Below are positions 2,736 to 24,792 of a stretch of 64,000 nt of DNA, one piece after another. This stretch comes from Alphaproteobacteria bacterium (GTDB taxonomy: Bacteria; Pseudomonadota; Alphaproteobacteria; Bin95). Each line of letters begins with the position of its first letter. Position 1 is the stretch's first letter. The stretch lies in contig JAURGE010000001.1 of assembly GCA_030833925.1 (NCBI GenBank), forward strand, positions 79,535-143,534, read 5' to 3'. The notes under the pieces are model-generated. The model saw nothing but the letters and a program-made list of their open reading frames with translations, had not been told where the DNA came from and did not search any database. A program made the translations under genes and the position numbers.

Positions 2736-3641
2736 TTAAGTACTGTGCTGCAACCACCTGCGCCAGACTGCTGCAATTCCCAAGATCAATCCTGCAACAC
2801 AGGCGATCCCTCCGGCTGCGTTTACTGCACTTGAAGCTCCCAGGGCGGCTGCGCCCCATACGGCAAGGCAGTAGCCTACTATTGCTGCTGTTGTTGCAAA
2901 GAAAAGGCTGGCCCAAATCTGAGAGCTGAAGCGATTGGTAGTCAGTCTTGCTGTTGCAGCTGGGCAGATCAGCATTGCTATCACCAATATTGAGCCTGCG
3001 GCGTCAAATGCTGCCACTACGGCAATTGCTACCGCGCCATTGATAGCCAATTCTGTAACCCAGAATGGTAGGCCTAGAGTTATTCCAAAACTTGGATCAA
3101 ATGTAACTAGGGTAATTTCCTTCGCTGTAAGAAGGAACGCTGCGGATAGGATGGCAAAAGTGCCGGCGAGGAAAGGAATTTCTTCTGGAAGGTGTCCCCA
3201 TCCATCAGGATTTAAAATGTCTACCCAAGTCATCGGATGAGGCCAAATAACACTTTCTATGCTTCCGTATAGGGCATGTTCAACATCGAGGTGAACGCCT
3301 GCTGTGCCTGTTGTTTCAATCATAAGCACACCAGCGGCAAACATTGCGGTCAGGACTACTCCCATCGCTGTTGCCATATCCAAACGGCCAATCTTTCGGA
3401 TCAACGCAACTACGGCGGCACCAAAAAGCCCAGCCACTAGAGCACAGGCAATTGTCACCCAGGTTTTGGGGTGGCCGCTGATCAGATATCCGGCGACTAT
3501 GCCTGGTAAGACCATGTGAGACAGGGCATCCCCCATCAATGCTTGCCGTCTTAGAATTAGTAGGTTCCCAACTAATGCAGCAGTTAATGCTGCGAGGATC
3601 GCAACGGATATTGCAGGCAGGTCAATCTGTAGGAATGTCAT
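2736..3641 (-). CDS. ABC-3 family metal (Mn/Fe/Zn) ABC transporter permease
   Basis: 301-aa polytopic membrane protein with ABC-3 (ZnuB/MntB/SitD-like) features. Its start overlaps the upstream permease stop by 4 nt (ATGA). Confidence 0.85.
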   Translation of the reverse strand: MTFLQIDLPAISVAILAALTAALVGNLLILRRQALMGDALSHMVLPGIVAGYLISGHPKTWVTIACALVAGLFGAAVVALIRKIGRLDMATAMGVVLTAMFAAGVLMIETTGTAGVHLDVEHALYGSIESVIWPHPMTWVDILNPDGWGHLPEEIPFLAGTFAILSAAFLLTAKEITLVTFDPSFGITLGLPFWVTELAINGAVAIAVVAAFDAAGSILVIAMLICPAATARLTTNRFSSQIWASLFFATTAAIVGYCLAVWGAAALGASSAVNAAGGIACVAGLILGIAAVWRRWLQHST

Positions 3642-4822
3642 ACTGAACGACGCTCGAGATCAGCGATGACATCTCTTGGAAGTAGCCGTTTAAGTGGCAA
3701 AAGGCTTCCACCAATTCGGCTGGCTTCCTCAGGTCTGTCGTCTAGATATAAGGATCTAAGCCGTTCTTCTTCAGCCCAAGATTTGGCAGCCCTTTCTCCA
3801 GCAGGGGTTGGTCGACCTTCCGAATCAGCCCACCCGCGGCCACGGGCAATTTTCAAAAGTTCTGCCAACGCAACGCCGTCAGCAATTCGGCCTAGAGCAC
3901 GGAGGTACTTGAGATTGCGGGAAAGCCGTCGCCGCCGGACAGCAATTGCAATAACTCCTCGCTTTGGCGCAAAAAGGACGCTAATGGTAAAAAGAACACT
4001 CATAATCACGACGATAAGCGCTCCAGTTGGCAGACCAGAAGTTGCTGCGGAAATTCCTCCACCAAAATATGCTCCAGCGCCACCAAAAAGAGCAGATAAA
4101 AGAGCCACACGCGGTAAACTATCCGTCCAATAACGTGCAGCCGCTGCAGGCGTCACTAAAAGCGCTAAGATTAAAATTAGTCCTACTGCTCGAAGGCCCG
4201 ATGCCACTAAGAGGAGCATCAAGGCTGTGGTCAAAAGGTCGAGTGAGCGGACAGGTAAACCAAGGGCTGCGGATCCAATTGGGTCGAACGCTGACAGTGC
4301 GAGCTCTTTGAAAAATATCAGAAGCATAATCAGTGAGCACAATCCTACAACCGCCAGTATCCAAGCCTCTTTTTGAGTCATGGTTGCTGCCTGGCCAAGG
4401 AGATAGGCGTTTAGACCTGCTTGACCGGCTGTTGGCAAGGTTTGGATTAAGCTAAGCAGAACTACGCCAATGCCGAAAGAAACACTTAAAGTGGCGGCCG
4501 TTGCTGCATCTTCGCCAATCCGGCTTCCATCTTTTAGAAGGTGCATAACACCGGCTGCTGCTACTCCGGCAAGCGTCGCTCCGGATAAAAGAAAGACTGG
4601 ATTCCGCCCATCTCCAGTTAAAATTAGTGCTATTAAAAAACCTGCTGCAATGCCTGGAAGCGTTGCGTGTGCGACCGCGTCCGCTAACAATGGCCGGCCT
4701 TTTAAGATCATGAACGTTCCTACTGGGCCAGCTGCAGCACCAAGTAAGCCAAGTCCAATCATTACAATAGTGCTGTTGTAACCGCCCTCAAGCAGTAACG
4801 CTTCAATAAGCATTCCAAACAT
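3638..4822 (-). CDS. ABC-3 family metal ABC transporter permease with ~110-aa Arg-rich C-terminal extension
   Basis: The permease core covers ~285 aa. It is followed by a hydrophilic Arg-rich tail (RRRRLSRNLKYLRALGRIADGVALAELLKIARGRGW...). Confidence 0.8.
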   Translation of the reverse strand: MFGMLIEALLLEGGYNSTIVMIGLGLLGAAAGPVGTFMILKGRPLLADAVAHATLPGIAAGFLIALILTGDGRNPVFLLSGATLAGVAAAGVMHLLKDGSRIGEDAATAATLSVSFGIGVVLLSLIQTLPTAGQAGLNAYLLGQAATMTQKEAWILAVVGLCSLIMLLIFFKELALSAFDPIGSAALGLPVRSLDLLTTALMLLLVASGLRAVGLILILALLVTPAAAARYWTDSLPRVALLSALFGGAGAYFGGGISAATSGLPTGALIVVIMSVLFTISVLFAPKRGVIAIAVRRRRLSRNLKYLRALGRIADGVALAELLKIARGRGWADSEGRPTPAGERAAKSWAEEERLRSLYLDDRPEEASRIGGSLLPLKRLLPRDVIADLERRSV

Positions 4823-4829
4823 CGGGGAA

Positions 4830-5630
4830 TCAGCCTAGCGCAGCTCGGAGCTGCGGAGGTGCTAGGCGCCCACCATAGGCGCGCTGCAATGTCTCTTCGG
4901 TAAGGGCTTGACCAACCGGTCCCGAGGCGATGTTACGTACATTCAATAGTAGCGCTTGATCAAAGTATTCTTTCACCGTCGAAAGGTCATGGTGCACTGC
5001 TATTACTGTCTTTCCTGAGGATACTAGGCGCTGCAGCAGTGCTACTATGGTTCGCTCTGTGGCTGCGTCTACACCGGCTAAGGGCTCATCCATCAAATAC
5101 AGATCGGCGTCTTGGGCAATGGCTCGCGCCAGAAAAACACGCTGCTGCTGCCCTCCGGATAATTGACCAATCTGGCGGTCTGCGAAGTCAGCCATCCCCA
5201 GTTCAGCCAGTGCAGAAAGGGCGATTTCCTTATGTCGACGTCGGATTGGACGAAGCCACCCTATTTGGCGATATAGCCCCATAGTTACAACGTCGATTGC
5301 TGTAGCGGGAAATTCCCAATCTACGCTTTCCCGCTGAGGTATATATGCGATCCGTTGACGAACTTTGGGAATTGGCAGGCCGTAAGATCCAATCCGTCCA
5401 TCAATGGTCGGTACAAGTCCGAGCGTACCCTTAAGGAAAGTAGACTTGCCTGCCCCATTGGGACCTACTATGGCAACCAAAGTTCCCGGTAATGCTTTAA
5501 AGTCTACGTTCCAAACAGCGGGCGCACTCCCATAGGCGACTGTCAATCCTGACACATCAAGGGGGGATTGACGGTCAAGAGGCGCGTGAAGCTCCTCACT
5601 CTGGAGTAGGGCACGAATTTCTGGACTCAT
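4830..5630 (-). CDS. metal ABC transporter ATP-binding protein (ZnuC/MntA/SitB-like)
   Basis: Walker A motif GPNGAGKST and signature LSGGQQQRV are present. The start is set at an internal Met (MSPEIRAL) so the gene does not overlap the upstream substrate-binding-protein gene; the longest ORF would extend to 5708. Confidence 0.85.
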
Positions 5631-5634
5631 CCGA

Positions 5635-6612
5635 TTACCTCTCTCCTTTAGGAAGAAAAGCAAGAAGAGCCTGCATGCCATTTCTTGGTGCGTTGCCACC
5701 CAGTCCACGAACTATTGTCGTGACATTGTGATCAATCATACCGATGTAGCTGCCCTCATAGCTGTCTGGAGACCCCATCGCATCAGAGAAAAGAGGTTTA
5801 CCTTTTTTCACTTGGGCACCGAGGGCGCGGGCGCCTTCTATAACTGCGTCGACAGCCCTTTCTGGAGTAGATGTTTCAACAAACACTGAAGCAATGTTTC
5901 GATGGGCAATGACGGAAACCAGTTTCCGAATATGAGCAACTCCGGCTTCACTTTCGGTTGAAATCCCCTGCACACTCAACAATTCAAGCCCATACCTCCG
6001 ACCAAAATAGCCGAAGGCGTCATGAGCGGTCACCAAGACACGGGCTTTTTCTGGCACAGTTGCTAGACGGCTCTCTGCATAGAGGTCGATGGCCTTTATT
6101 TCCGCAATCACGACAGATTGGTTATTGACGATGATTTGCTTGCAACTTGGCCAAATTTCTACAAAGCGGTTAGAGGTCATGCTCAAAACTTCGGCCCACA
6201 AAATAGGGTCCATCCAAATGTGAGGGTCGGCTGAGCGGCCGTCTGGTCTAATGATTTTGACATCGGGAAGCAATTCGGATGCAAGAATGACAGGCTTAAT
6301 GGGGGCCAGTCGGCCAAACAAGCTCTGCATCTGGGCTTCAAGGTTAAGCCCGTTAGCTACAATTGCGTCCGCTCTCAAAGCCTTCGCTACATCCGTCCGC
6401 GTAAGCCTGTACAGGTGCGGATCTACGCCAGGCCCTAATAGTGTTTGAACGTCAGCGCATCCATCAAGAATCCGGCCAAGGGGTTCTCCAATTTGGGCGA
6501 TGGTTGTAAGCACGTTTGGTCGTTCGGCAGCCATCGCAGACGATGTGGTTGCCAGAAATGCAATTAACGCACTACGCAACAATCTTGAAAGTATGGAGAT
6601 GCTGTGTCGCAT
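5635..6612 (-). CDS. metal ABC transporter substrate-binding protein (TroA/ZnuA/MntC/SitA cluster-9 family)
   Basis: Signal peptide ([15 protein letters not shown]) and a cluster-9 substrate-binding-protein fold signature. It is the first gene of the transporter operon. Confidence 0.85.
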
Positions 6613-8862: not shown

Positions 8863-9594
8863 CTACCGCTTTGAAGCGGAGCGCCGAAATGCAGCGATTC
8901 TCTCCTTGATCCCAGGTACACTGACTGATCGGGCTAAGGCCGCCATGTCCGCGTCGCGAGTGTCTGGTCGAGTTACATCTGCGAGAGCCCTTGTGACGGT
9001 TGGCGATAGTCGACTATAGGCTTCTGTAAAATTATTGATAATGGGTTCCCAATACTCGAGATCTACAATTTGGTCGATTAAGCCAAGTTTTTCAGCCTCT
9101 TCGGTTGCAAGTGACCTATTCTCAATCTGGACTTGTCGAGCAGCAACGTTTCCTATTCTGTATGCTAAACGGCGCGTGCCAAGCACTACACCAAACCGGG
9201 GACCAGGCATTTGAAATTTTGCAGCAGGCGCGGCAACAACTCGCATAGCCGCCGCTGCAAGATCGGCACCTGCTCCAACTGCTTGGCCTTGCACTAAAGC
9301 CATTATTGGCATTGGCGCATGGAATACAGTTTGCAACATTTCTTCGACTTGTATGAATCTTAGGACTAGGTCGCCATCAGTTAGATTATCAAAGTCGCCA
9401 AAATCGAAGCCCGCACAGAAATGTTTTCCACTTCCACGGAGGATAATGACGCGCGATCCGTTTGCTGAGGCATCATTGATCGCCAGTTTAATGCCATCAG
9501 CCATATCTGCCGAAAGCGCATTCGCCTTTTCTGGTCGATTGAGGGTGATAATGGTCGCCTTGTCACGAGCATCTACAAGAACAGCGTCCTTCAT
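8863..9594 (-). CDS. enoyl-CoA hydratase/isomerase (crotonase) family protein
   Basis: Crotonase-fold motifs present (FCAGFD, GQAVGAGADLAAAA). Confidence 0.75.
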   Translation of the reverse strand: MKDAVLVDARDKATIITLNRPEKANALSADMADGIKLAINDASANGSRVIILRGSGKHFCAGFDFGDFDNLTDGDLVLRFIQVEEMLQTVFHAPMPIMALVQGQAVGAGADLAAAAMRVVAAPAAKFQMPGPRFGVVLGTRRLAYRIGNVAARQVQIENRSLATEEAEKLGLIDQIVDLEYWEPIINNFTEAYSRLSPTVTRALADVTRPDTRDADMAALARSVSVPGIKERIAAFRRSASKR

Positions 9595-10464
9595 CTACAT
9601 CTCCGGGATCGGATGTGCTCGTCGAATACATGCCGCACGCACAGCATTCTCTATCAAACAGGCAATGGTCATTGGACCGACGCCTCCTGGAACAGGAGTG
9701 ATCGCCTGCACACGTCCTACTGCTTCTTCAAAGGCCACATCACCAACTAGGCGGCTCTTTCCGTCTTCTTTACTTACGCGATTGATGCCAACATCGATAA
9801 CAACTGCGCTCGGCTTAATCCAATCTCCGCGAATCATCTCTGGGCGGCCAACAGCTGCGATCAAGATATCAGCGGTCCTGCACCGCTCTCTCAAGTCAAT
9901 AGTTTGCGAGTGAGTAATTGAGACTGTGGCGCTCTCTGCTAAGAGCATTGCGGCCATCGGTTTGCCTACAATATTTGACCGTCCGACAATTATAGCCTCC
10001 TTGCCTGCAATTTTCTGAACCACAGAGCGGATCATCCTCATACACCCAGTTGGAGTGCAGGGTGCTAGCGTTGGTGCGCCAGTCCAAAGGCGACCCACAT
10101 TAGTAGGGTGAAATCCATCTACGTCTTTATCTGGGTTGATAGCATTCAAAACGCGCTCGGCGTTAATGTGAGCTGGCAGAGGGAGTTGTACCAGGATGCC
10201 GTCCACAGTGTTGTCATTGTTGAGCAGTTCAATAAGCGAGAGCAGTTTAGTCTCGCTGACATCTTCAGGTAACTTATGCTCAAAGGAATTAAGGCCAGCT
10301 TCTATGGTGGCTTTTCCTTTGTTGCGGACGTAAACAGCACTTGCTGGATCCTCTCCAACAAGCACCACGGCCAAGCCAGGTTTGAATCCAAGGCCCGAGA
10401 CGGCTCTGGCTGCACTGGCTCGGAGGTTTGCCGCCATTGCTTTGCCGTCAATTAACCGGGTCAT
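9595..10464 (-). CDS. folD: bifunctional methylenetetrahydrofolate dehydrogenase / methenyl-THF cyclohydrolase
   Basis: Conserved FolD motifs are readable ([34 protein letters not shown]). Confidence 0.9.
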
Positions 10465-10523
10465 TGTATTTCTCCAATCTGGTTCCGTGCCTGAACTAGC
10501 AGATAGTCTGTAGGGCCTTTAAC

Positions 10524-10796
10524 CTAAACTGTCTTTGAACGGGACTTCTGACCCCGAATTAATGCAACATCTCGCTTTGGAACTCCAAAAGATTTAGCAA
10601 CCCAAGCAATTACTGTTGTGTTCGCGACACCATCAACAGGGCGAGCACTGATTTGAAGTTTTAGGCGCGTAATACCCATAGTATCAGTCTCAAAACCTAC
10701 CACTCTAGTATTGGCCGCACCTGGCTGCACTCGTTGGTCAATCAATATAGAGTTGGGGCCCTCTGCACGGGTTATCAAAAACCAGACACAGCCCAC
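10524..10796 (-). CDS. yggU: DUF167/YggU family protein
   Basis: The C-terminal region aligns by eye with E. coli YggU (PVDGxAN...G...SR.K). The ORF overlaps yggT by 22 nt, so the true start may be internal. Confidence 0.55.
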   Translation of the reverse strand: MGCVWFLITRAEGPNSILIDQRVQPGAANTRVVGFETDTMGITRLKLQISARPVDGVANTTVIAWVAKSFGVPKRDVALIRGQKSRSKTV

Positions 10797-14052: not shown

Positions 14053-14811
14053 TTAGGGATTGCGTAATGACGGCAACCCGACTCCTACGGCGTCAAATCC
14101 ACCATCTGCAGCCAGGATTTGGCCGGTGATGTAAGAGGCTTTATCGCTCGCAAGAAACACAATTGCCTCAGCAATTTCTCGCTCAGTACCGTAGCGATTC
14201 AGTGGAATTGCATCGTGATAAGCGTCAATAATATCTTGCGTGTGAACCTGTTTTGACATTGCAGTAGCAACAGGGCCTGGGGCGACACAATTTACACGTA
14301 CGCCGTATTCCCCAAGCTCTGCTGCTTGCTGTTTCGTTAAGTGGATTACAGCAGCTTTCGAAGTCCCGTAAGCAACTCTTAGGGTAGATGCCCGAAGCCC
14401 AGAAATTGATCCTATGTTTACTATTGAGCCTCGTGTTTCTTTCAAATATGGAATAGATGCCTGGGCGCAGAGGAAAACCCCATCAAGGTTTGTCTCCATA
14501 ACGCGCCGCCAGCGAGTAAAATCATGCTCCTCTAACGGCCCAAAGTCGGCAACTCCGGCATTATTGACGAGGCAATCGATTCGACCGAAAGACCTAATGG
14601 CCTCTGTCATGATACGGCCCGCATCTTGAGGGTTGGAAACATCGGCCGTTATAGCACTCACATGCGTTAGCTTAGACGCTTCGGCGTCAAGCAGCGCTTC
14701 GAGCCGGTCGACCATTACAACGCTCCAGCCATCAGCAAGAAATAAATCTGTTGTGGTGCGGCCTATTCCTCTTGCGGCGCCTGTAACTATTGCAACTTTT
14801 CTAAATTTCAT
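14053..14811 (-). CDS. SDR family oxidoreductase
   Basis: N-terminal TGAARGIG dinucleotide-binding motif and a catalytic YxxxK (YGTSK). Confidence 0.8.
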   Translation of the reverse strand: MKFRKVAIVTGAARGIGRTTTDLFLADGWSVVMVDRLEALLDAEASKLTHVSAITADVSNPQDAGRIMTEAIRSFGRIDCLVNNAGVADFGPLEEHDFTRWRRVMETNLDGVFLCAQASIPYLKETRGSIVNIGSISGLRASTLRVAYGTSKAAVIHLTKQQAAELGEYGVRVNCVAPGPVATAMSKQVHTQDIIDAYHDAIPLNRYGTEREIAEAIVFLASDKASYITGQILAADGGFDAVGVGLPSLRNP

Positions 14812-16160
14812 GGTTTGGCGATGTCCGTGATTTCGGAGACGTCATCGAGTTCTGCAATTTTCCAGCTCAAGGACGATACTGATTCTGCTTTGTTTCTCGG
14901 CAAAACAAGCTCGGCTTGATCCATAAATTTCTTCTCAAGTGCCTCGATCGACATAGGTTGCTTGAGACTTCCTATGCCATGCTCTATCCGTCGATGGTGG
15001 ATCCTACCGTCAGTCATCTCGATCGTGACATCCGCTCCATCGCGATTAACGCCATTGTCAGCCTGAACGACTATCTTACGTCGAGTCGCTACAACCATTG
15101 GGTTAGCTACCGCATCTTCCGTACCTTCAGAGATGCCAGCAGACTTCATAACGAGAGCTGCAGCTGTCCAATGCTGGAGGCTAACCTGAGCGAGTTGGGC
15201 GTTCGGAGGCTCAGGTCTATCTGTCAGTGTTAGACAAAGGGGGTTTAACCGTAGCCGAATTGCGTTCACTTTTTCCGCATTGAAAGAGGGATCGGCTGCG
15301 ATTTCCAGGCAGGCATCAAGGATTGGATGGATAACAATACCGCATGGATAAGGCTTTGGCATATTTTCCCGCATCTGCCACTTATCACCTAATTCATCTG
15401 TGACATGCTGCAGGTGAGCCTTTGGAGCAAAAACTTCACCAAAACCCTTTGGGCCTTCGAGCGTCGCCGCGGTTGCTGTCACTCCCTCTGCTGCCATTAG
15501 AGCGGCTATATATCCAGCTCGCGATGCTTGGCCGGGTAAAAGGCTAGTGCACATAGACCCATGAGTTTGGCGGAAACCCATCGCCGCGGCAGCTCCAAGT
15601 CCCAGTGCATGCAGCGTCACTTCTTCATTAAATTGCAGTAGGTTAGCCATTGCTGCTGCGGCACCGATAGGGGTCGCTACGCTCGACATGTACCATCCAA
15701 CCTGGGTCTCCGCTGGGGGAACAGTGAGTGCCATGGCAATTCGGCAGGCGACCTCTACGCCAACCGTGAAGGCCGCATGGAGATCTCGGCCCGATGTCAC
15801 CCTTCGTTCTGCTTCAGCCATCAATGGAGCTGCTATTGGACCAGCAGGATGGAGAACGGTCGCGAGGTGAGTGTCATCGAATGCATGGGCTGCTGAAGCT
15901 TGTGCGTTCACCAAAACAGCGTCTGGTGCAGATAGCTTCTCATTTCGACCAAGCAGCGATGTCTTCACCCCTCCGGCAAACGGTAAAACAGTTTTAAATG
16001 TTCGCACTGTTGCATCATGGGTCATCCCACCCAGGGTGCAGCCGATAAAATTGTAGAACTGTTGTGTAGCGTCTTCGCATACTTCATTGGGTAGGTCCGC
16101 AGCCCGGACGTTGGCAACAAAGTTGGCTAACACTTGGGTGGTTTCAATCATTAATTTCAA
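14808..16160 (-). CDS. MmgE/PrpD family protein (2-methylcitrate dehydratase-like)
   Basis: 450 aa with an MmgE/PrpD-like sequence throughout. It overlaps the neighbouring genes by 4 nt on both sides, which suggests one operon. Confidence 0.7.
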   Translation of the reverse strand: MKLMIETTQVLANFVANVRAADLPNEVCEDATQQFYNFIGCTLGGMTHDATVRTFKTVLPFAGGVKTSLLGRNEKLSAPDAVLVNAQASAAHAFDDTHLATVLHPAGPIAAPLMAEAERRVTSGRDLHAAFTVGVEVACRIAMALTVPPAETQVGWYMSSVATPIGAAAAMANLLQFNEEVTLHALGLGAAAAMGFRQTHGSMCTSLLPGQASRAGYIAALMAAEGVTATAATLEGPKGFGEVFAPKAHLQHVTDELGDKWQMRENMPKPYPCGIVIHPILDACLEIAADPSFNAEKVNAIRLRLNPLCLTLTDRPEPPNAQLAQVSLQHWTAAALVMKSAGISEGTEDAVANPMVVATRRKIVVQADNGVNRDGADVTIEMTDGRIHHRRIEHGIGSLKQPMSIEALEKKFMDQAELVLPRNKAESVSSLSWKIAELDDVSEITDIAKP

Positions 16161-17041
16161 ACTCCCAAAAGTTCTGCAACGGCGTCAGAAAAGGCGCGTG
16201 GTGCCTCCTGAGCCACATTATGACCAACCTTTTCCAAGGTTCTTCGCTCATATCCTCCAATGAACTTTTCGGCTTGGCGATCTTTGGTAGGGACTGGATG
16301 TACGCCGTCCGCAAGGCCATGAAGATTAATAGTTGGAACAGATATTACTGGCATCTTGGAGAGTGCAGCTTCGATAGCTCCATACGCAGGATCTGGGTCA
16401 GCGTAGCCGTAGCGCACCCGATAGGACTGAATTACCACATCAACGAAATCCGGGTTTTCGAAACTCGGTGCAGTTTTTAGAAATTCAGCCTCGGTGAAGT
16501 TCCATTCTGGTGACCAGAGCTTCCAAAGCAATCGAGCTAACTCAGTCCGATTGGCCTCAAGACCCGCTCGTCCTCTTGGGGTGTGAAAGTAGTACTGGTA
16601 CCAGTACCGATGTTCTGCTGCTGGGGGTGCTGGATGGATGGAAGCTGCTACATTTTGGATGTTATAACCAGCTCCAGTCACAAGACCCGTGGCTCTTTCA
16701 GGCCATAGCGCTGCAACAACATTAGCGGCGCGCCCACCCCAGTCATATCCTGCTAATACTGCCTGCTCGATTTCCAGGGCATCCATAAGGTCAAGGAGAT
16801 CTGCTCCCAGGGCTGCTTGTTCTCCTGAACGTGGGGTATTGGGGTCGAGGAAAACTGTTTGCCCGTAGCCTCTTAGATAAGGTGTTATCGTTCGGACACC
16901 GCGGTTATTTAGCAAAGGTGCGACTTCAGTAAAGCTCTGAATATCATAGGGGAAGCCATGCAATAGAATGGCTACTCGGCCATCTTTTGGGCCAGTATCA
17001 AAGTAAGCAATTTCCAGCTTTTTAGTTCGAATCTTTTTCAT
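16157..17041 (-). CDS. alpha/beta hydrolase fold protein (epoxide-hydrolase-like)
   Basis: HGFP oxyanion motif and a nucleophile elbow (GYDWGG). The start is set at the MKKIRT Met; the longest ORF would extend to 17098. Confidence 0.7.
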   Translation of the reverse strand: MKKIRTKKLEIAYFDTGPKDGRVAILLHGFPYDIQSFTEVAPLLNNRGVRTITPYLRGYGQTVFLDPNTPRSGEQAALGADLLDLMDALEIEQAVLAGYDWGGRAANVVAALWPERATGLVTGAGYNIQNVAASIHPAPPAAEHRYWYQYYFHTPRGRAGLEANRTELARLLWKLWSPEWNFTEAEFLKTAPSFENPDFVDVVIQSYRVRYGYADPDPAYGAIEAALSKMPVISVPTINLHGLADGVHPVPTKDRQAEKFIGGYERRTLEKVGHNVAQEAPRAFSDAVAELLGV

Positions 17042-17457
17042 CGCGTAAAATCCTCTAACGCGGTGTGGTGCCCATTGGCTTAGCCTGCAAAACAGCAACC
17101 AACGGTAGACAATATCGAGTTCTTATTACAGCCCCAGGTTCTGCTTCGATGTATCAAGTTCAAAAAAATCTATTGCGCATCTGAAAATTTATGTTGGAAA
17201 ATTTGGGGCAGAATTGTTGGTGAAAACCAAGTGGGGCGCAGGTTGCTGCGCTTTTACACACTGTTACATTTTTTAGTCTTAGAAGAAGCCGGTTTCTGAT
17301 AAATGTTTTGTATGAAAAACTTTAATACGAGCCTCAAGAGCCGTATCGGAGTTATTAGAGTTAAACGTTTCCAACAACCCGCTAACAACTTTCCATAAAA
17401 GTCGATTAGCGTAGTCAAACAAGCAAGAAATCAGCCAGGATTAGGATCAACAAGCGG

Positions 17458-18534
17458 ATGGCAAATATTATAAAGATACCAGCGGATGTCGTTCGTAGTC
17501 AGCTTGAAGCGGTGTTTCAGGCCTGGGGTATGCCGAAGGAAAACATAGCAACAACTGTGGATGTTATGGTTGCGACTGACCTTTCAGGCGTTGATAGCCA
17601 TGGTCTTGGCATGTTGCCAGGTTATCACCAAAGGCGTGGCCGCGGCATGATCAAAGATCAGCCAGATATTCGTGTGGTGCGAGATAAGCCAGCTGCCGCC
17701 CTGATAGATGCTGATCGTAGCCTTGGCCATCCACCGTCTGTTATGGCGATGAAACTTGCAATGGAGAAAGCTCGAGCCATGGGAGTGGGTATAGTTTCTG
17801 TTAGAAACTCAAACCATTTTGGAGCAGCGGGCTATTACAGCCGAATGGCCGCCGAGGCAGGTATTGTTGGTATGGCTATGACCAACGCGCCAACCCCTGC
17901 CATGGTACCTACGTTCGGTCGTGATCCGGTTCTTGGCACCAATCCGATTGCCTTTGCTGCCCCAGCCGAAAAGAATCCTCCTTTCAGCTTAGATATGGCA
18001 ACCACAACAGTTGCTGTAGGTAAGCTCAACATAGCTCGTAGGCTTGGAAAGGCCATTCCCAATGGCTGGGCACTAAACACCGATGGCGAGGTGGAAACAG
18101 ATGGTGCAGCTGCTTTCGCCGCCCGACGCTTGACACCCTTAGGTGGAGACCGGGAGCGAGGTAGTCACAAGGGCTATGGGTTGGCGACGATGGTTGAAAT
18201 TCTTTGTGCAACCTTATCTGGTTCTTGGTCAGATGGGCCAGGCCCAGATGGTAAGCCGCAGCGCACTAAGACGAATGTTGGTCACTTCTTCTTAGCGATA
18301 GATCCTTCTAAGGTACGAGCAGATGGGGAATTCGAGGCCGATCTCGACCGAATGATAGATATGCTTCACGCAACCCCACCGGTAGATCCAGAAAATCCTG
18401 TGCAGGTTGCGGGTGATCCAGAAGTTCTGGCTACAGCAACACGTTTGGTAGACGGTATACCAATTGCTGACACTCTCATTGAAGAAGTCCGTAAGGTGGC
18501 AGTCGAGTCGAATGCCCCCTTCCTGCTTGCCTAA
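17458..18534 (+). CDS. Ldh_2 family (malate/L-lactate/sulfolactate dehydrogenase type 2) oxidoreductase
   Basis: Ldh_2 motifs present (DSHGLGMLPGY, NSNHFGAAGYY, GTNPIAFAAP). Confidence 0.75.
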   Translation: MANIIKIPADVVRSQLEAVFQAWGMPKENIATTVDVMVATDLSGVDSHGLGMLPGYHQRRGRGMIKDQPDIRVVRDKPAAALIDADRSLGHPPSVMAMKLAMEKARAMGVGIVSVRNSNHFGAAGYYSRMAAEAGIVGMAMTNAPTPAMVPTFGRDPVLGTNPIAFAAPAEKNPPFSLDMATTTVAVGKLNIARRLGKAIPNGWALNTDGEVETDGAAAFAARRLTPLGGDRERGSHKGYGLATMVEILCATLSGSWSDGPGPDGKPQRTKTNVGHFFLAIDPSKVRADGEFEADLDRMIDMLHATPPVDPENPVQVAGDPEVLATATRLVDGIPIADTLIEEVRKVAVESNAPFLLA

Positions 18535-18537
18535 TGA

Positions 18538-19308
18538 TTAGACTCGGCCAGCTGAAACTCCACCGTCGACCATATACACGCCACCCGTGCAGAAGCTTGA
18601 GTCATCGCTAGCCAAAAATAGCATCATTCGTGCAATTTCTTCTGCCGTTCCATAGCGCTGCATTGGTGTACCTTGGGCCATAGTAGCGTTTACGCCCGCA
18701 CCTGCCGGCACTCCACGCTTTGTCTCTATCTCAAAAATCATATCAGTTTCAGTGGCAGCCGGGTTGACCGTGTTGACCCTAATATCGTGGGCGGCACCCT
18801 CAAGTGCCGCGGAGCGCATCAGCCCTATCACTGCATGTTTCGAGGCCGTGTAGGGGGCGATATTTCTAGTTGCTCGAATGCCTGATGTTGAAGAGGTGCA
18901 AACGATTGATCCTCCCTTAGCGCTCATCGCTTGCATCACATACTTTAGGCCAAGCCATACGCCTCGCACGTTAATTGCCATTAGCCGGTCGAAGGCCTCT
19001 GCCGGATAGTCCGCGAAGGATTTGACTTCGCCTACGATGCCAGCATTTAGAAGTGCTGCATCCACGGCGCCGAAGTGAGCGATTGTCCGAGAAACATAGA
19101 GTTTGGTGGCTTCCTCATCCGACACATCTGCAACTACGTAAGCAGCTTTCTCTTTACCTAACTCGGCAACGAGCTTTGCCATTGGGTCTTCAAGCACATC
19201 AACAAGCATTACGCGCCCACCTTCGCTAGTGAATAACTTGGCCGCCGCTGCACCGATTCCCCTCGCACCACCTGTTATTATTGTGGTTTTACCCTCCATT
19301 TTGCCCAT
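18538..19308 (-). CDS. SDR family oxidoreductase
   Basis: TGGARGIG motif and a catalytic YTASK. Confidence 0.8.
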   Translation of the reverse strand: MGKMEGKTTIITGGARGIGAAAAKLFTSEGGRVMLVDVLEDPMAKLVAELGKEKAAYVVADVSDEEATKLYVSRTIAHFGAVDAALLNAGIVGEVKSFADYPAEAFDRLMAINVRGVWLGLKYVMQAMSAKGGSIVCTSSTSGIRATRNIAPYTASKHAVIGLMRSAALEGAAHDIRVNTVNPAATETDMIFEIETKRGVPAGAGVNATMAQGTPMQRYGTAEEIARMMLFLASDDSSFCTGGVYMVDGGVSAGRV

Positions 19309-19319
19309 TATTTGCTCCT

Positions 19320-20147
19320 CTACGCCGATTTTCTATCCCAGCCCCACCAATCACAAATTGCATCACCCATAACAAGGCGTTGGTCATCTCCATTTAGCCA
19401 TGGGGCGGCAGTAAACATGTCTATACATTCAGTCCAGGAACAGGGCATTTTCGTGATATCAGTCCCCCAGAAAGTTCGCTCTGGTCCAAAGGTTTCGAAT
19501 ACCTGACGCACATAGTCGAGCATTATGGGAAAGGGATATCCTTCGGCTGAATAACCAGGAGCACCCGTCGCTTTTACGGCGATATTTGGGTAACGGGCCA
19601 GCGCCAAAAGCTCAGGCATATGGGTCATGGCGGCGTGGTCTTTTAATGTTGTATTGCCACCGCGGCCTCCCAAGTGGTCGATGGTAATCCTCAAATCCGG
19701 GTGTTTTTCGGCAATCCTTGCAAAAGCAGATAGGCAGTCTGTGCAAAGGGCTGCCACTCGCACTTGGCCCACTTCGGCAGCTTCCCAGATCGGATCAAGA
19801 TCGCCAGAGGAAAGCAGTTCGCGCTCCCGTCCAGCAAGGAATGTGTAGCGAATACCAAGCATACCCGGAGTTTTTCGCAAATTTCGCACTCGATCGACCG
19901 CTCCCGGACCTTCTAGAGGAGGTGAGGCCATGATTGCGAAGCGACCTGGATAGTCTGCAATCGCTTGAATAGCTAGCTGTTCTGACGTGGGGTCCCAGGA
20001 AGGAGGATGAATTACTGCACCGCCGACATTGGCTTCATCCATCAAAGAGATGGCTTCTGGAGCCAAAAAAGATGTTACCTGCCTGTGTGCCATATTTGAT
20101 GGCAGACCCTGTCCCCAAAGATGAATTTGAGCATCAACGATAGACAT
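19320..20147 (-). CDS. amidohydrolase-2 (ACMSD/LigW/LigJ-type metal-dependent hydrolase/decarboxylase) family protein
   Basis: N-terminal VDAQIHLW metal-binding motif and TIM-barrel hydrolase signatures (IDHLG, WGTD). Confidence 0.7.
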   Translation of the reverse strand: MSIVDAQIHLWGQGLPSNMAHRQVTSFLAPEAISLMDEANVGGAVIHPPSWDPTSEQLAIQAIADYPGRFAIMASPPLEGPGAVDRVRNLRKTPGMLGIRYTFLAGRERELLSSGDLDPIWEAAEVGQVRVAALCTDCLSAFARIAEKHPDLRITIDHLGGRGGNTTLKDHAAMTHMPELLALARYPNIAVKATGAPGYSAEGYPFPIMLDYVRQVFETFGPERTFWGTDITKMPCSWTECIDMFTAAPWLNGDDQRLVMGDAICDWWGWDRKSA

Positions 20148-20203
20148 TATTCATTGTTCCCAGCAGACATTGTTTGTTTTAACGCAGAACGCTTAAGGGT
20201 TAT

Positions 20204-21301
20204 TTAGTCGAACATGATGACTGATCGAGCAATTTCACCCTTTTTCATTTCCTCAAAGGCGTCATTCACGTCCTCAAGAGCGATGTGTTGAGAGACTAAC
20301 TCGTCAAGTTTGAGCCTTCGCTGCATGTAGAAATCTATGTAGCGGGGCATATCGACCCTAAAACGATTAGACCCCATCGTCGAACCTTGGATTTTCTTCT
20401 CTCGAAGAAATTCTGGACCATGCAGTTCAATTTTCGTGCCAACCGGAATCATGCCAATAATAGTGGCGGTACCACCTGGTCGGATCATTCTAAAAGCGTC
20501 TTCGGCAGTCTGCTTCAGCCCAATAGCCTCAAAAGCATAATGTACCCCACCTCCTCCGATCAGATTGCGCACTTGCTTTACAGGGTCGCCATCTTTTGGA
20601 TTTACCACATCAGTGGCGCCAAATTCTTTAGCAAGATTGAGCTTTGTCTCGGAAAGATCTATCGCAATAACCCGGCTAGCGCCGGCGATTGCAGCGCCAT
20701 TGATTGCGGATAAACCAACACCCCCACAGCCTATAACGGCAACCGTAGACCCTGCCTCAATACGTGCTGTGTTTTGAACAGCTCCAACACCAGTTGTAAC
20801 GCCACAGCCTATTAGTGCTGCTTTATCTAAAGGCATATCCTCTCGGATTTTGACTGCGGCGTGCTCATGTACAAGCATTCGTTCCGCAAAAGAAGACAGC
20901 TGAGCAAACTGATGAATTTCTGTGCCGCCTTGAGATAGCCGTGGTTTTTCATTTTCACTTCTCATACGAGATGGGCTTTCGCAGAGGCTCATCTTTCCTG
21001 AAAGGCAATACTCGCAATTTCCGCAGAATACTGAGAGGCAGGTAATCACCGTATCCCCGGCCTTAAAGTCAGTGACCTGATCGCCTACAGCCTCGACTAT
21101 GCCTGCACTTTCATGGCCAAGCACGGTTGGATAGCGCCAGGGGTAGGAACCCTCTGCCATGTGTAGATCAGAGTGACAGACACCGCAGGCTTTGGTCTTG
21201 ATGCGAATTTCACGCGGACCTGGGTCATCGACGGTGATGTTTTCAATTGTCAACGGTTGGCCCGTTTCTCTTAAGATGGCGGCTTTGGCTTGAGCGGGCA
21301 T
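20204..21301 (-). CDS. Zn-dependent alcohol dehydrogenase, class III-like (MDR family)
   Basis: Catalytic zinc ligands (CGVCHSD, GHE) and a structural-zinc Cys cluster (CGNCEYCLSGKMSLC). The NAD-binding GCGGVG motif is present. Confidence 0.8.
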   Translation of the reverse strand: MPAQAKAAILRETGQPLTIENITVDDPGPREIRIKTKACGVCHSDLHMAEGSYPWRYPTVLGHESAGIVEAVGDQVTDFKAGDTVITCLSVFCGNCEYCLSGKMSLCESPSRMRSENEKPRLSQGGTEIHQFAQLSSFAERMLVHEHAAVKIREDMPLDKAALIGCGVTTGVGAVQNTARIEAGSTVAVIGCGGVGLSAINGAAIAGASRVIAIDLSETKLNLAKEFGATDVVNPKDGDPVKQVRNLIGGGGVHYAFEAIGLKQTAEDAFRMIRPGGTATIIGMIPVGTKIELHGPEFLREKKIQGSTMGSNRFRVDMPRYIDFYMQRRLKLDELVSQHIALEDVNDAFEEMKKGEIARSVIMFD

Positions 21302-21319
21302 TTGTATCTCCTCAAACTA

Positions 21320-22096
21320 TCAGTTTTTTTTGTTGCCTGCATAGGTGTTGTAAGCAAGTCCAGCCAGCCACCCGTTATCTACGGGCAGTGTAGCCCCGGT
21401 AATGGCTCGAGCTGCATTGCTGCATAGAAAAACAATGGCGTCTGCAATTTCATCTGGTTCTACGATACGGCGAAGCGTTTTTTGATCTTCCATCACAGAA
21501 GTGTCCCGTTCGCCAGCCTCAACCCGTGCTCTTAGGGCTTCAGTCATAACAAATCCGGGGGCTACGGCATTAACGCGAACACCGCGGGGGCCTAAATCCC
21601 CGGCGAGCACTTTAGTTAACTGGTGAATAGCAGCCTTAGATGGACTGTAGGCTGGGAGTGGGAACATCTCAAAACCGGCTATTGAACCAATATTCACAAT
21701 AGAGCCGGTTCCACGCGATGCCATAACTGGACCAAAGGCCCGACAACATAGATAAGTCCCCCGATAGTTAACGTCCCATATACGGTCATGCTCGGCTAGA
21801 TCCATATCCTCAACTCTCGAACCGTTTTGCAGGATACCTGCGCAGTTCACTAGCGTTTCAACATGGCCTTTCGTTTCCGCGGACTGAACTAGGGCAGCAA
21901 CGGATGCTTCGTCCGCTACATCAATTTTAATTGCGCTTGCATCGCCTCCAGAAGCTTTAATGCGGGCGGCTGTCTCTTTGGCGCCGACCTCATTTACATC
22001 AGCAATAACTACGTGATTGCTTACTTTTGCTAGCTTGAGGGAAGTGGCTCTGCCAATTCCACTACCTCCACCGGTGACGACACTAATTTTCTTCAC
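21320..22096 (-). CDS. SDR family oxidoreductase
   Basis: TGGGSGIG motif and a catalytic YSPSK. Confidence 0.8.
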   Translation of the reverse strand: MKKISVVTGGGSGIGRATSLKLAKVSNHVVIADVNEVGAKETAARIKASGGDASAIKIDVADEASVAALVQSAETKGHVETLVNCAGILQNGSRVEDMDLAEHDRIWDVNYRGTYLCCRAFGPVMASRGTGSIVNIGSIAGFEMFPLPAYSPSKAAIHQLTKVLAGDLGPRGVRVNAVAPGFVMTEALRARVEAGERDTSVMEDQKTLRRIVEPDEIADAIVFLCSNAARAITGATLPVDNGWLAGLAYNTYAGNKKN

Positions 22097-22171: not shown

Positions 22172-22777
22172 ATGGAAACCGTTATGCCCCGGAGTGATGA
22201 TCTTCAGTTTTTCTTGGACGAGTTGAAAACTTCGATTGCAAAATGCCAACCCGCACACGAAATTCAATCAGCAACAACTTTGGCATTCCAACGACTCGAA
22301 ACTCTCGGCCAAGAGAAATGGTCGTCGAACCACTCTGAAGCACCGGCAACGGCTTGGCTAGAACAGGCGATCAAAACTGCCAAGGCTGGTCCTACAGGTA
22401 AGCTAGCAGACGCTTTAGAAAATCTAGCCCCTAAGCTTTTTTGGCAGAGACGGATGGATCGACCTTCGATCCATCCCAAATGGCCGAATTCCCACGCAAA
22501 TTCGGTTATCATTGGTGATACTGGCTTGGAATGTAGGAACGACGTTCGTATTGGGGTAAGTCTTCTGGCCCCTTACACCATTTATCCAAACCATCAACAC
22601 CCACCAGAGGAAGTTTACATAGCATTGAGCAATGGATCTTGGCGACAAAACGATGGATTTTGGCAAACCCGTGGTGCGGGTGGGCTTATCTATAATCCGC
22701 CAAATATTGTTCACGCTATGAAGTCTAACTCAGACCCGTTACTCGCAATTTGGATATTGCCTCTCTCACTCCTGTAG
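22172..22777 (+). CDS. cupin-domain protein with a DddK/DddW/DddQ-like metal and Tyr motif (candidate DMSP lyase)
   Basis: 201 aa: an N-terminal ~120-aa helical region plus a cupin. Cupin motif 1 reads H141-x-H143-x3-E147-x-Y149, and the second cupin His is H181 (38 residues after H143). This spacing is the same as DddK (H56/H58/E62/Y64/H96) and DddW (H81/H83/E87/H121). Confidence 0.45.
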   Translation: METVMPRSDDLQFFLDELKTSIAKCQPAHEIQSATTLAFQRLETLGQEKWSSNHSEAPATAWLEQAIKTAKAGPTGKLADALENLAPKLFWQRRMDRPSIHPKWPNSHANSVIIGDTGLECRNDVRIGVSLLAPYTIYPNHQHPPEEVYIALSNGSWRQNDGFWQTRGAGGLIYNPPNIVHAMKSNSDPLLAIWILPLSLL

Positions 22778-22804: not shown

Positions 22805-24088
22805 TTAAACCTCATTTTTTGGAGCGTATTTGGCATAGCGCACATCAGCAGTAATTGCGTGGGCAAGCATGCCTTCACTTTCGGAGATGCGACTTATTAC
22901 GGGAGCTATATGCCGACTGGCTTCTGGGGTGAGGCGCTGCCAAGTCACGGTTTTCAGAAATTTACCAACCCAAAGACCACCGGTATAGCGGGCGGCTCTG
23001 CCGGTTGGTAAAATATGATTAGTTCCTACTCCTTTGTCGCCATAAGCGACAGTTGTTGCCTCCCCAACGAAAAGGCTTCCATAATTTGAAAGGTTGGCAA
23101 GATAATAATCGTCGTCTGATGTCATAACTTGCAAATGTTCTGAGGCATATTCATCTGCCATCTCGACAGCTTCTTCTTTGCTTTCGACAATTACAACTTC
23201 GCCGTAATCTCTCCATGCCTGCCGAGCGATCTCTCCTGTAGGAAGTGTCTTAAGTTGCGTTTCGACCTCCTTTAAGACTTCTTCGGCGAGCTTGTGAGAG
23301 GTAGTTATGAGCCAACAAGGACTGTCTGGGCCATGTTCCGCTTGGCCTAGAAGGTCTGTAGCAACTAGAGATGGTGAGACGCTGTCATCCGCTATTATTA
23401 GAGTCTCTGTTGGGCCTGCTAGTTGATCAATCCCACATACCCCAAATAGTTGCCGTTTGGCTTCGGCAACATAGGGATTCCCAGGGCCAATTATTAAATC
23501 TGACGCTGGCATGCCTACCAAGCCATAAGCCATTGCAGCAAGAGCTTGCACGCCCCCTAGGGCGAAAATCTCGTGCGCACCCGCTGCGTGAAAAGCATAT
23601 AGGGTCTGCGGATATACCCCATCTGCGTCTTTTGGTGGGGCACATCCAATTATGGTTCCGACATTGGCAACTGCTGCCACCCCGGCTGACATGATAGAGC
23701 CTGCCACTAAGGGGTATTTACCCCCGGGCGTGTAGCAGCCTGCCACTTTAATTGGAATGTGGCGATGTCCCATTCGAGCCCCAGGTCGAAGCTCAATGTC
23801 AAGCTCTGCCATTGTTTCTCGTTGAGCCTTGGCAAAGTCCTGTACCTGACGTAACGCGAATTTAATATCTTCTTTGAAGGTTTCCGGAAGTATCCGTTCC
23901 ACTTGACGTATGCGGTCTTCGGACATCCGAAATTCAGGATTTTCCCATTTATCGAGGTCATATGCATACTTCCGAATAGCATCATCGCCATTAGTGCGAA
24001 TATCAGCCAACATTTTAGCTACTGTTGCTTCAACAGCTGGTCGGTCGAAGCCTTCTCTTTGGTTGGATTTTTTTAAATAAGTACGCAT
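22805..24088 (-). CDS. histidinol dehydrogenase family protein (HisD paralogue; possibly HpsN-like sulfopropanediol-3-dehydrogenase)
   Basis: 427 aa and HisD-like over its full length. There are no his genes nearby; it sits among catabolic genes and lies 20 bp downstream of a SRAP gene. Confidence 0.7.
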   Translation of the reverse strand: MRTYLKKSNQREGFDRPAVEATVAKMLADIRTNGDDAIRKYAYDLDKWENPEFRMSEDRIRQVERILPETFKEDIKFALRQVQDFAKAQRETMAELDIELRPGARMGHRHIPIKVAGCYTPGGKYPLVAGSIMSAGVAAVANVGTIIGCAPPKDADGVYPQTLYAFHAAGAHEIFALGGVQALAAMAYGLVGMPASDLIIGPGNPYVAEAKRQLFGVCGIDQLAGPTETLIIADDSVSPSLVATDLLGQAEHGPDSPCWLITTSHKLAEEVLKEVETQLKTLPTGEIARQAWRDYGEVVIVESKEEAVEMADEYASEHLQVMTSDDDYYLANLSNYGSLFVGEATTVAYGDKGVGTNHILPTGRAARYTGGLWVGKFLKTVTWQRLTPEASRHIAPVISRISESEGMLAHAITADVRYAKYAPKNEV

Positions 24089-24108
24089 CAGTTCTTGGCC
24101 TCACGAGT

Positions 24109-24792
24109 TCAGAATAGTTTCAATTGTCCCATTGGACTTAATGACTTGGCCGGCTTCAGCAGATCTGGATCATTTTGGTTTACGTTGCCCACTCTTCTAT
24201 CAACTTCAACTAACCTAAAACGATCCTCCGGAGCGGGTTGGATCAGTGACGCCGCATCCGTTGTAGATGCTTTTAGCCAAATATCGAATGCATCCGGCGG
24301 AATAACAACGGGCATCCGATGATGGACGTCTTCCAACAATTTATTTGCCTCTGTTGTGACTATGGTGAAAGTCTCCAAATTTTTTCCATCAGACCCCTGA
24401 CTGGTAGCCCAAAGTCCCGCAAATGCTACTGTCTCGCCAGGGTCTGCAAAGAAAGCTTGTCGCGTGCTCCCCTTTCCTCGCCATTCAAAAAAACCGTCTG
24501 CTGGGACGAGGCAGCGAAAAAGGTTGAAACTTTCCTTGAAACTTGGTTTTTCGGCGATGGTCTCACCGCGGGCATTAATAAGGGGAGGACGGCCGGAATT
24601 GGGGCAAGCCCATTTAGGGACAAGACCCCAGCGGAGCTTTGCAAATGTCCTACTGTCATCTACAGCTCTTACCACTGGTGCTTCGTGAGTGGGAGCAATG
24701 TTCCAGCTTGGTGACAAGTTTGGGAGTTCGATGAAACCGAATAGTTTAGATAGATCACCGATGGGCGTTGTCAGCAGGTATCTTCCGCACAT
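24109..24792 (-). CDS. SOS-response-associated peptidase (SRAP / YedK-like abasic-site processing protein)
   Basis: Starts MCGRY with the conserved Cys2. The rest is SRAP-like (WNIAPT, RWGLVP). Confidence 0.8.
   Translation of the reverse strand: MCGRYLLTTPIGDLSKLFGFIELPNLSPSWNIAPTHEAPVVRAVDDSRTFAKLRWGLVPKWACPNSGRPPLINARGETIAEKPSFKESFNLFRCLVPADGFFEWRGKGSTRQAFFADPGETVAFAGLWATSQGSDGKNLETFTIVTTEANKLLEDVHHRMPVVIPPDAFDIWLKASTTDAASLIQPAPEDRFRLVEVDRRVGNVNQNDPDLLKPAKSLSPMGQLKLF

Follow-up and report, generated by a model that had tools for sequence, protein, structure and literature searches.

Histidinol dehydrogenase of Escherichia coli (EcHisD; PDB 1KAE; EC 1.1.1.23) belongs to the same Pfam family, PF00815, as HpsN, the (R)-2,3-dihydroxypropanesulfonate (DHPS) 3-dehydrogenase represented by the enzyme of Cupriavidus pinatubonensis (CpHpsN; PDB 8V35 and 9CP7; EC 1.1.1.308). 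Further HpsN enzymes come from the marine alphaproteobacterium Ruegeria pomeroyi (RpHpsN; SPO0594; PDB 8WWE) and from Bilophila sp. 4_1_30, the latter a dehydrogenase of L-cysteinolate as well as DHPS that has, by description, the substrate-binding residues of CpHpsN (PMC12814064). These two show that their branch of the family oxidises three-carbon sulfonated alcohols and amino alcohols, and the genes of both lie together with genes for sulfonate transport and for sulfolyases (hpsKLM, cuyA/cuyBC). I consider here another member of the family, encoded at 22805..24088 on the minus strand (427 aa, ATG start) of a 64,000-nt stretch of DNA, hereafter the window, which covers positions 79,535 to 143,534 of contig JAURGE010000001.1 from an alphaproteobacterial assembly (GCA_030833925.1). 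The initial annotation, made from the sequence alone, took the gene for a HisD paralogue outside any his context and possibly for an HpsN-like sulfonate dehydrogenase. I will argue that the protein is indeed such a paralogue and that it is probably (the odds seem to me about 60%) an uncharacterised specificity variant from a sister clade of HpsN, whose main substrate would be neither histidinol nor DHPS.

DHPS dehydrogenases are marked by an active-site loop that reads Gly-Arg-Tyr-Ala/Ser-His, where HisD reads Gly-Ser-Ala-Pro-Leu (PMC11382572); the form in RpHpsN is Gly-Arg-Tyr-Ser-His. The histidine of this loop, His126 of CpHpsN, ligates zinc in the empty enzyme and, when substrate is bound, forms hydrogen bonds with the sulfonate together with Lys353 (PMC11382572). 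The window protein reads Gly123-Lys124-Tyr125-Pro126-Leu127 (codons at 23708..23722, minus strand, read directly), with Leu127 at the position of His126 in a gap-free stretch of the alignment with CpHpsN, RpHpsN and EcHisD. The Lys/Tyr of the HpsN type is kept, as is Lys352, which follows the zinc ligand Asp351 (codons at 23033..23038, minus strand; by alignment the equivalents of Lys353 and Asp352 in CpHpsN), but the loop ends in Pro-Leu as in EcHisD. The protein lacks the Gly-Arg-Tyr-Ala/Ser-His motif of HpsN, then, and has the lysine beside the zinc-ligand aspartate. It also lacks the pattern of canonical HisD, Gly-Ser/Thr-Ala-Pro/Ala-Leu/Tyr with Gly-Asp-Tyr (GDY), in place of which stand Gly-Lys-Tyr-Pro-Leu (GKYPL) and Gly-Asp-Lys (GDK).

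This combination is shared by the nearest relatives of the protein. GK[YF]PL together with GDK was found in 120 of 120 nearest homologues (116 with GKYPL and 4 with GKFPL; 63–91% identity), and GKYPL and Asp-Lys are invariant in an alignment of 26 sequences. Homologues of CpHpsN have Arg-Tyr-Ala-His and the lysine in 113 of the 113 that could be scored, the other seven being unscorable at one of the two positions. The positions that set HpsN proper apart from all the groups without the histidine, R123K, A125P, H126L/M, S149A, S355V/I, S374W, E409L and V109H in CpHpsN numbering, fall mainly in the two mobile loops of the active site and beside the zinc ligand provided by the partner chain, their nearness to the active site being taken from the loop definitions of PMC11382572. 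Most of the changes replace a polar residue of HpsN by a hydrophobic one. The window protein itself has Leu127 for His126 of CpHpsN, Pro for Ala125, Lys for Arg123, Val for Ser355, Trp for Ser374 and Leu for Glu409.

That the protein is HisD-like along its whole length, as the initial annotation held, is borne out by the match to PF00815 (440 bits), which covers residues 11–417 of the 427. Among proteins of known structure it scores highest by phmmer with CpHpsN (8V35; 469 bits), followed by RpHpsN (8WWE; 389 bits) and EcHisD (247 bits), and its identity is 51–52% to CpHpsN as against 33–35% to the solved HisDs. A structural model from AlphaFold (AF2; predicted local distance difference test score 82, predicted template modelling score 0.83) has as its top Foldseek match the closed complex of CpHpsN, with a template modelling (TM) score of 0.83 at 51% identity; HisD structures reach about 0.77 at 33% identity, and HpsN and HisD structures together range from 0.75 to 0.83. 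All the zinc ligands are kept in the alignment (Gln249, His252, Asp351 and His410, corresponding to Gln248, His251, Asp352 and, from the partner chain, His411 of CpHpsN), as are the catalytic pair Glu317/His318 (Glu318/His319 of CpHpsN) and His358, Glu405 and Lys352; the roles of these residues in CpHpsN are taken from PMC11382572. Every one of them is invariant in the 26-sequence alignment of the clade. Since the zinc and catalytic residues are all present, the type of reaction may be assigned by homology as a zinc- and NAD-dependent four-electron oxidation of a primary alcohol to a carboxylate by way of a bound aldehyde. With CpHpsN the protein shares the fold, the zinc ligands, the Glu-His pair, the Asp-Lys pair and the tyrosine of the loop, in a full-length alignment without gaps in the active-site loops, and presumably also the two-step NAD+-dependent course from alcohol to aldehyde to acid. 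The protein is a non-biosynthetic paralogue of HisD, with HpsN as its closest characterised relative.

A biosynthetic HisD encoded apart from the other his genes is the first alternative to be weighed, and such separation of hisD is common in Alphaproteobacteria. The protein scores 437 bits with the hisD model TIGR00069, exceeding the cutoff of 243.8, NCBI gives many of its relatives the name histidinol dehydrogenase, all the catalytic and zinc residues shared with HisD are present, and Pro126-Leu127 equals the Pro-Leu of EcHisD, with which it also has the Pfam family, fold and zinc site in common. The identities just given, however, favour HpsN over HisD, and in the tree described below the protein lies outside all GDY sequences. 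Where HisD has the small Ser/Thr-Ala and a Tyr, or Gly-Ser-Ala and Asp-Tyr in EcHisD itself, the window protein has Lys-Tyr and Lys352. CpHpsN has these features too and is inactive on histidinol, and RpHpsN is 691-fold worse on it. Neither hisG, hisC, hisB nor a second HisD homologue was found in the 64-kb window by tblastn and Pfam searches, so that the initial annotation was right about the missing his context and about the catabolic oxidoreductases in its place; orthologues, moreover, lie in catabolic operons with LacI regulators and transporters of the ATP-binding cassette (ABC) type. I consider a biosynthetic role very improbable. TIGR00069 does not discriminate on this tree, since it accepts a protein whose place is with HpsN, away from HisD. 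The relatives' current names, histidinol dehydrogenase at NCBI and sulfopropanediol 3-dehydrogenase in the style of JGI and KEGG, are probably both wrong for this protein.

The relationships within the family were examined in a neighbour-joining tree of 152 members, which included representatives of the whole family at 50% identity. The proteins with GDK form a superclade (92% bootstrap) from which EcHisD and all GDY sequences are absent, so no clustering of the window protein with canonical HisD was seen. Within the superclade, HpsN proper (CpHpsN, RpHpsN and other proteins with GR[YF][AST]H) is supported at 90%, and the GKYPL core clade of the window protein, 25 sequences with 100% support, stands separate from it. 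The kinship with HpsN proposed initially thus holds at the level of the superclade, and membership in HpsN proper does not. The superclade contains further groups without the histidine, a soil group with GRYPM and a second marine group with GKYP[LM]. Outgroups have Leu or Tyr at the position of His126, from which it follows that Leu is ancestral and that the histidine clamp is new in HpsN proper. The clade is large: when just the nearest homologues are counted it has at least 120 clusters (90% identity), and the related soil and marine groups come in addition.

Two other observations on the family may be recorded. A large set of proteins with GR[YF]PL and GDY, represented by 31 sequences in the set used for the tree and for the group-separating positions, lies outside both canonical HisD and the GDK superclade, and no characterised member could be identified in it. 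Among the representatives are also long fusions that contain a HisD-like domain, such as P0125 (826 aa, with the HpsN-type GRFAH) and P0192 (1501 aa).

The neighbourhoods of orthologues were compared in 56 dereplicated loci and eight well-annotated contigs, cited here where necessary by their L numbers. Two layouts recur in the core clade. One consists of a divergent LacI gene, the HisD-like gene, and the genes of an ABC importer, namely an SBP_bac_1 binding protein, two permeases and a MalK-type ATPase, and is found in full in L010, L019, L028 and L032. The ABC genes occur without an adjacent upstream LacI gene in L008 (Elioraea), L027, L030 and L106, L107 has LacI plus ABC systems, and a hydrolase of the metallo-beta-lactamase fold is sometimes included (L028, L035, L107). 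In the other layout, the divergent gene encodes an AMP-binding CoA ligase, and a gene of the enoyl-CoA hydratase family begins 4–5 nt after the dehydrogenase gene (L006, L108, L109). A Pfam census of 88 neighbouring open reading frames (ORFs) from 11 metagenomic loci of the core clade is led by BPD_transp_1 (9) and ABC_tran (8), with LacI domains (6–7), SBP_bac_1 (5), MalK domains (4–5) and Lactamase_B (3) next, and has no sulfolyase family among its top 25. In neither the window nor the orthologue loci examined was the gene linked to hpsO, hpsP, hpsKLM/hpsU, suyAB, xsc or cuyA, a difference from CpHpsN with its hpsR/O/U/P-suyAB neighbourhood and from the RpHpsN and Bilophila loci with their transporters and sulfolyases. 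The binding protein of the ABC operon has no informative relative in NCBIfam or PDB, the best PDB matches being the Listeria Lmo0181 protein (41 bits) and then a sorbitol binder (40 bits).

Some features of these loci stand apart. In L032 a malic-enzyme-like gene (9296-10597; NADP-malic-enzyme subfamily, 317 bits) lies between the genes for the HisD-like protein and the binding protein, a single case that would fit a malate-like product. The soil GRYPM group has an operon of its own (L042, L045, L052, L068, L078 and L096, from soil and other metagenomes), with one or more molybdenum hydroxylase subunits, a PF04199 cyclase resembling kynurenine formamidase, the HisD-like protein and a short-chain dehydrogenase/reductase (SDR), which suggests a role in the degradation of N-heterocycles or amides. 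A 126-aa Cupin_2 protein is encoded beside the orthologues in L006 and L108, but it is unrelated to the cupin in the window described below, and a recurrent cupin partner was rejected.

The reading I prefer would run as follows. The protein would be a dimeric dehydrogenase with the HisD fold that depends on Zn2+ and NAD+ and, like HisD and HpsN, works by two hydride transfers with a bound aldehyde in between, and the group oxidised to a carboxylate would be a primary alcohol beside a carbon that bears a 2-hydroxy or 2-amino group. Its clade, a sister of HpsN, shares Asp-Lys, Lys124 and Tyr125 with HpsN and has kept the ancestral Pro-Leu where HpsN acquired Ala/Ser-His; accordingly the far end of the substrate would be recognised otherwise than by a histidine clamping a sulfonate. 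A small anionic or polyhydroxylated alcohol may be guessed as the substrate, of the kind that a LacI-controlled ABC importer of the sugar type might bring in for other members of the clade. Histidinol is most likely not what the enzyme acts on in the cell, and DHPS probably is not either, the latter being a possible but so far unsupported substrate. Of all this, the fold, the catalytic residues, the place in the tree, the state of the motif and the gene neighbourhoods were observed; the type of reaction, the changed class of substrate and the co-transcription discussed below are inferred. I found no functional assignment in the literature for the clade or for other paralogues of HisD and HpsN without the histidine.

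Several considerations weigh against this proposal. His126 has never been mutated in HpsN, so its loss is no proof that activity on DHPS is lost, and Lys352, the other residue that binds the sulfonate in HpsN, is retained. EcHisD itself turns DHPS over weakly, with a Km of about 100 mM (PMC11131964, Table 1). The tree was made by neighbour joining with 50 bootstraps, and support for the order among the groups without the histidine is low (bootstrap 6–44%). The neighbourhoods vary by subclade, so the members need not all share one substrate. A few loci of the clade contain hints of sulfonates. A TauD-family gene is divergent from the dehydrogenase gene in L106, and another lies 6 kb off in L108. 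In Elioraea (L008, 13844-16310) there is a split thiamine diphosphate-dependent decarboxylase whose best matches are ComD and ComE, the alpha and beta subunits of sulfopyruvate decarboxylase, at scores below the curated cutoffs (117 bits against 148 and 135 against 221). Finally, the window formally passes a filter used in the literature for collecting HpsN, the presence within 10 ORFs of PF13561 and PF00107-PF08240 genes. The Elioraea decarboxylase is encoded on the opposite strand from the HisD-like/ABC operon, 4.5 kb away and beyond the ABC genes, and has alongside it a dehydrogenase resembling HIBADH and sulfolactaldehyde reductase and a CMD-family protein.

These points might be taken to mean that the protein is after all a genuine HpsN that does without the histidine clamp, or else a near relative specialised on another sulfonate, for example on L-cysteinolate. 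It would bind the sulfonate through zinc and Lys352 and pass sulfolactate to enzymes encoded elsewhere, possibly to the nearby Ldh_2 protein. The nearest characterised relatives are HpsN enzymes and GDK is kept; the relatives carry the JGI/KEGG-style name; the organism is a marine alphaproteobacterium, and DHPS is abundant in such waters (PMC11131964); Bilophila HpsN demonstrates that the family accepts cysteinolate (PMC12814064); and to the TauD and ComDE-like genes near some orthologues may be added an Ldh_2 protein whose best NCBIfam match is L-sulfolactate dehydrogenase and whose second-best PDB match is ComC. The motif of His126, however, is missing from the entire clade and present in the characterised HpsN enzymes (in that of Bilophila by the description of identical substrate-binding residues), the substitutions in the pocket loops lower the polarity of the site, and the linked hps, suyAB, xsc and cuyA genes are wanting. 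The Ldh_2 protein scores about half of the cutoff, and its gene is not syntenic beyond the nearest relatives. Of the initial suggestion of an HpsN-like sulfonate dehydrogenase there stand the proximity to HpsN and the shared GDK; the His126 motif failed, the clade is separate, and the orthologue loci point to ABC transport and CoA chemistry. On balance I regard a sulfonate substrate as unlikely, if by no means negligible. The SAR11 protein called CuHpsN was rejected as proof of divergent DHPS enzymes, its Km of 106 mM being at the level of EcHisD.

To return to a specificity variant outside both known substrates, a wider formulation is conceivable, which I put forward tentatively and with less than even confidence. 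The G[KR]YP[LM]/GDK proteins as a whole might constitute a third functional class of the family, catabolic dehydrogenases in which one enzyme takes an alcohol to an acid in a four-electron oxidation of a substrate with neither sulfonate nor imidazole. The substrate might then be a polyol, a dihydroxy-acid or a glycerol derivative; a dedicated ABC importer of the sugar type under LacI control would deliver it, and the enzyme would turn it straight into a central metabolite. In evolutionary terms the class would be an intermediate grade, out of which the His126 clamp of HpsN developed afterwards.

The genes around the HisD-like gene in the window had also been brought forward in favour of sulfonate metabolism, the SDRs as members of the class of HpsO and HpsP and the Ldh_2 gene as a member of the ComC family. 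The first of these attributions fell away in comparisons with PDB. The zinc-dependent alcohol dehydrogenase (Zn-ADH; 20204-21301, minus strand) was rejected as HpsP: it is class-III-like, with 286 bits to S-(hydroxymethyl)glutathione dehydrogenase, and no relative of HpsP of the sorbitol dehydrogenase type is among its best 60 PDB matches. The SDR at 21320-22096 (minus strand) was rejected as HpsO, since 8WWF is outside its best 60 PDB matches and its best match is a generic SDR. For the SDR that follows the HisD-like gene in L015–L017 and L022, HpsO ranks 20th in PDB, behind enzymes of the DHRS4 type. Concerning Ldh_2 (17458-18534, plus strand), the likeness to ComC holds at the level of the family; the L-sulfolactate dehydrogenase model of NCBIfam gives it 261 bits where the cutoff is 500, and an archaeal protein, the "malate dehydrogenase" of Pyrococcus (260 bits), is nearer in PDB than ComC (202 bits). 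SDR, Zn-ADH and Ldh_2 adjoin the dehydrogenase only in the two or three nearest relatives. The families named by the literature filter are formally present, without a sulfolyase or a DHPS transporter and in a linkage that is not conserved, and that the window passes is a caution about the filter and not functional evidence.

The other neighbour that drew attention is the gene directly upstream, at 24109..24792 on the minus strand (227 aa), which encodes an SRAP protein of the YedK/HMCES type with the N-terminal MCGRY and its Cys2 (PF02586, 214 bits over residues 1–204; PDB matches to YedK and HMCES). The two ORFs, their common orientation and the gap of 20 nt from the SRAP stop to the HisD-like ATG (24089..24108, minus strand) are as initially described. 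The gap holds a GAGG Shine-Dalgarno sequence, and no terminator-like hairpin was found by a scan between the genes; the scan for promoters and terminators gave no more matches than shuffled sequence. The same adjacency is seen in L001–L003, L011–L018, L022 and L103–L105, and SRAP lies directly upstream and co-oriented in nine of nine marine Rhodospirillales relatives (L011–L018, L022), with spacers of 10–79 nt. In these nine the dehydrogenase is 81–92% identical and SRAP only 49–68%, and the flanks of the pair are rearranged, with an amino-acid-type ABC importer inserted upstream in five and with varying genes downstream. The pairing is absent from all other members of the clade examined.

The co-transcription of SRAP and dehydrogenase that had been suggested is plausible, and the pair is probably a lineage-specific two-gene transcription unit arisen by rearrangement. 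In the marine Rhodospirillales lineage the LacI/ABC operon would have been lost and the gene would now probably be transcribed from the upstream SRAP promoter, the association reflecting operon drift and not a functional partnership. One could suppose instead that the two proteins form a functional module, for example a response to aldehydes and abasic sites, with the dehydrogenase disposing of a toxic aldehyde that accompanies DNA damage. The persistence of the pair in nine genomes despite the rearranged flanks and the divergence of SRAP speaks for such a module, but the linkage is limited to one lineage, no known chemistry joins the two proteins, and no alphaproteobacterial SOS box (GTTC-N7-GTTC) was found upstream of SRAP, matches to it being fewer than expected by chance. 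I consider the idea very improbable. The inserted importer (L012, L013, L015, L017 and L022, about 5 kb upstream; also 5243-8986 of L001) is of the AapJQM-like polar-amino-acid type, with an SBP_bac_3 protein and two long permeases, and lies between the 4HBT and SRAP genes, where it shares an operon with the thioesterase gene; it is missing from the window.

Convergent with the HisD-like gene, and 27 nt beyond its 3' end, is a gene at 22172-22777 (plus strand, 201 aa) for a cupin of the dimethylsulfoniopropionate (DMSP) lyase family (PF16867, 141 bits), which implies that the SRAP/HisD-like transcription unit ends there and does not enter the block of SDR and ADH genes. Beyond the cupin comes a block of SDR, Zn-ADH, amidohydrolase and SDR genes and then the divergent Ldh_2 gene; the neighbours in the window as a whole include three SDRs, the Zn-ADH, an amidohydrolase_2, a 4HBT thioesterase and a PhyH dioxygenase, and further out sdhCDAB. 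A protein identical to the HisD-like protein is encoded on 17 contigs from marine metagenomes in unchanged gene order (tilS, ftsH, sdhCDAB, PhyH, 4HBT, SRAP, HisD-like, cupin, SDR, ADH and onwards), and the nearest genomes are metagenome-assembled genomes of uncultured marine Rhodospirillales and Alphaproteobacteria.

Three features of this surrounding DNA lie aside from the dehydrogenase. The cupin has the metal motif HxHxxxxE...H, its PDB matches are exclusively DMSP lyases of the DddQ, DddK and DddL types at weak scores (22–26 bits), and among relatives just the nearest ones have it, at about 64% identity; a divergent DMSP lyase of an uncultured marine member of the Rhodospirillales is a possible identity for it. 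The catabolic block at 14053-22096 comprises SDR, MmgE/PrpD and alpha/beta-hydrolase genes (minus strand), Ldh_2 (plus strand), and SDR, Amidohydro_2, Zn-ADH and SDR genes (minus strand), and is syntenic in L011, L018 and L103. At 2736-6612 (minus strand) the window has a metal importer of the ZnuABC/ABC-3 type (a ZnuA-like binding protein, an ATPase and two ABC-3 permeases), unrelated to the present finding even though the HisD-like dehydrogenase is a zinc enzyme.

The gene hpsN serves as a marker for the turnover of DHPS in metagenomes and metatranscriptomes from ocean and soil, usually by way of cut-offs in similarity or bit score. A large clade passes cut-offs of the hpsN type as well as the cutoff of the hisD model, yet is without the sole structurally defined residue of sulfonate recognition and is found in different operons. 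Calls of hpsN and hisD by similarity merge at least three functional groups. If the third-class reading is true, environmental counts of hpsN from KEGG-style similarity cut-offs would be inflated. If the clade still oxidises DHPS, then the His126 signature would not be required, and the model of sulfonate recognition would need revision. If its substrate differs, inventories of sulfonate cycling would be too high, and there would be a simple catabolic route still to be discovered.

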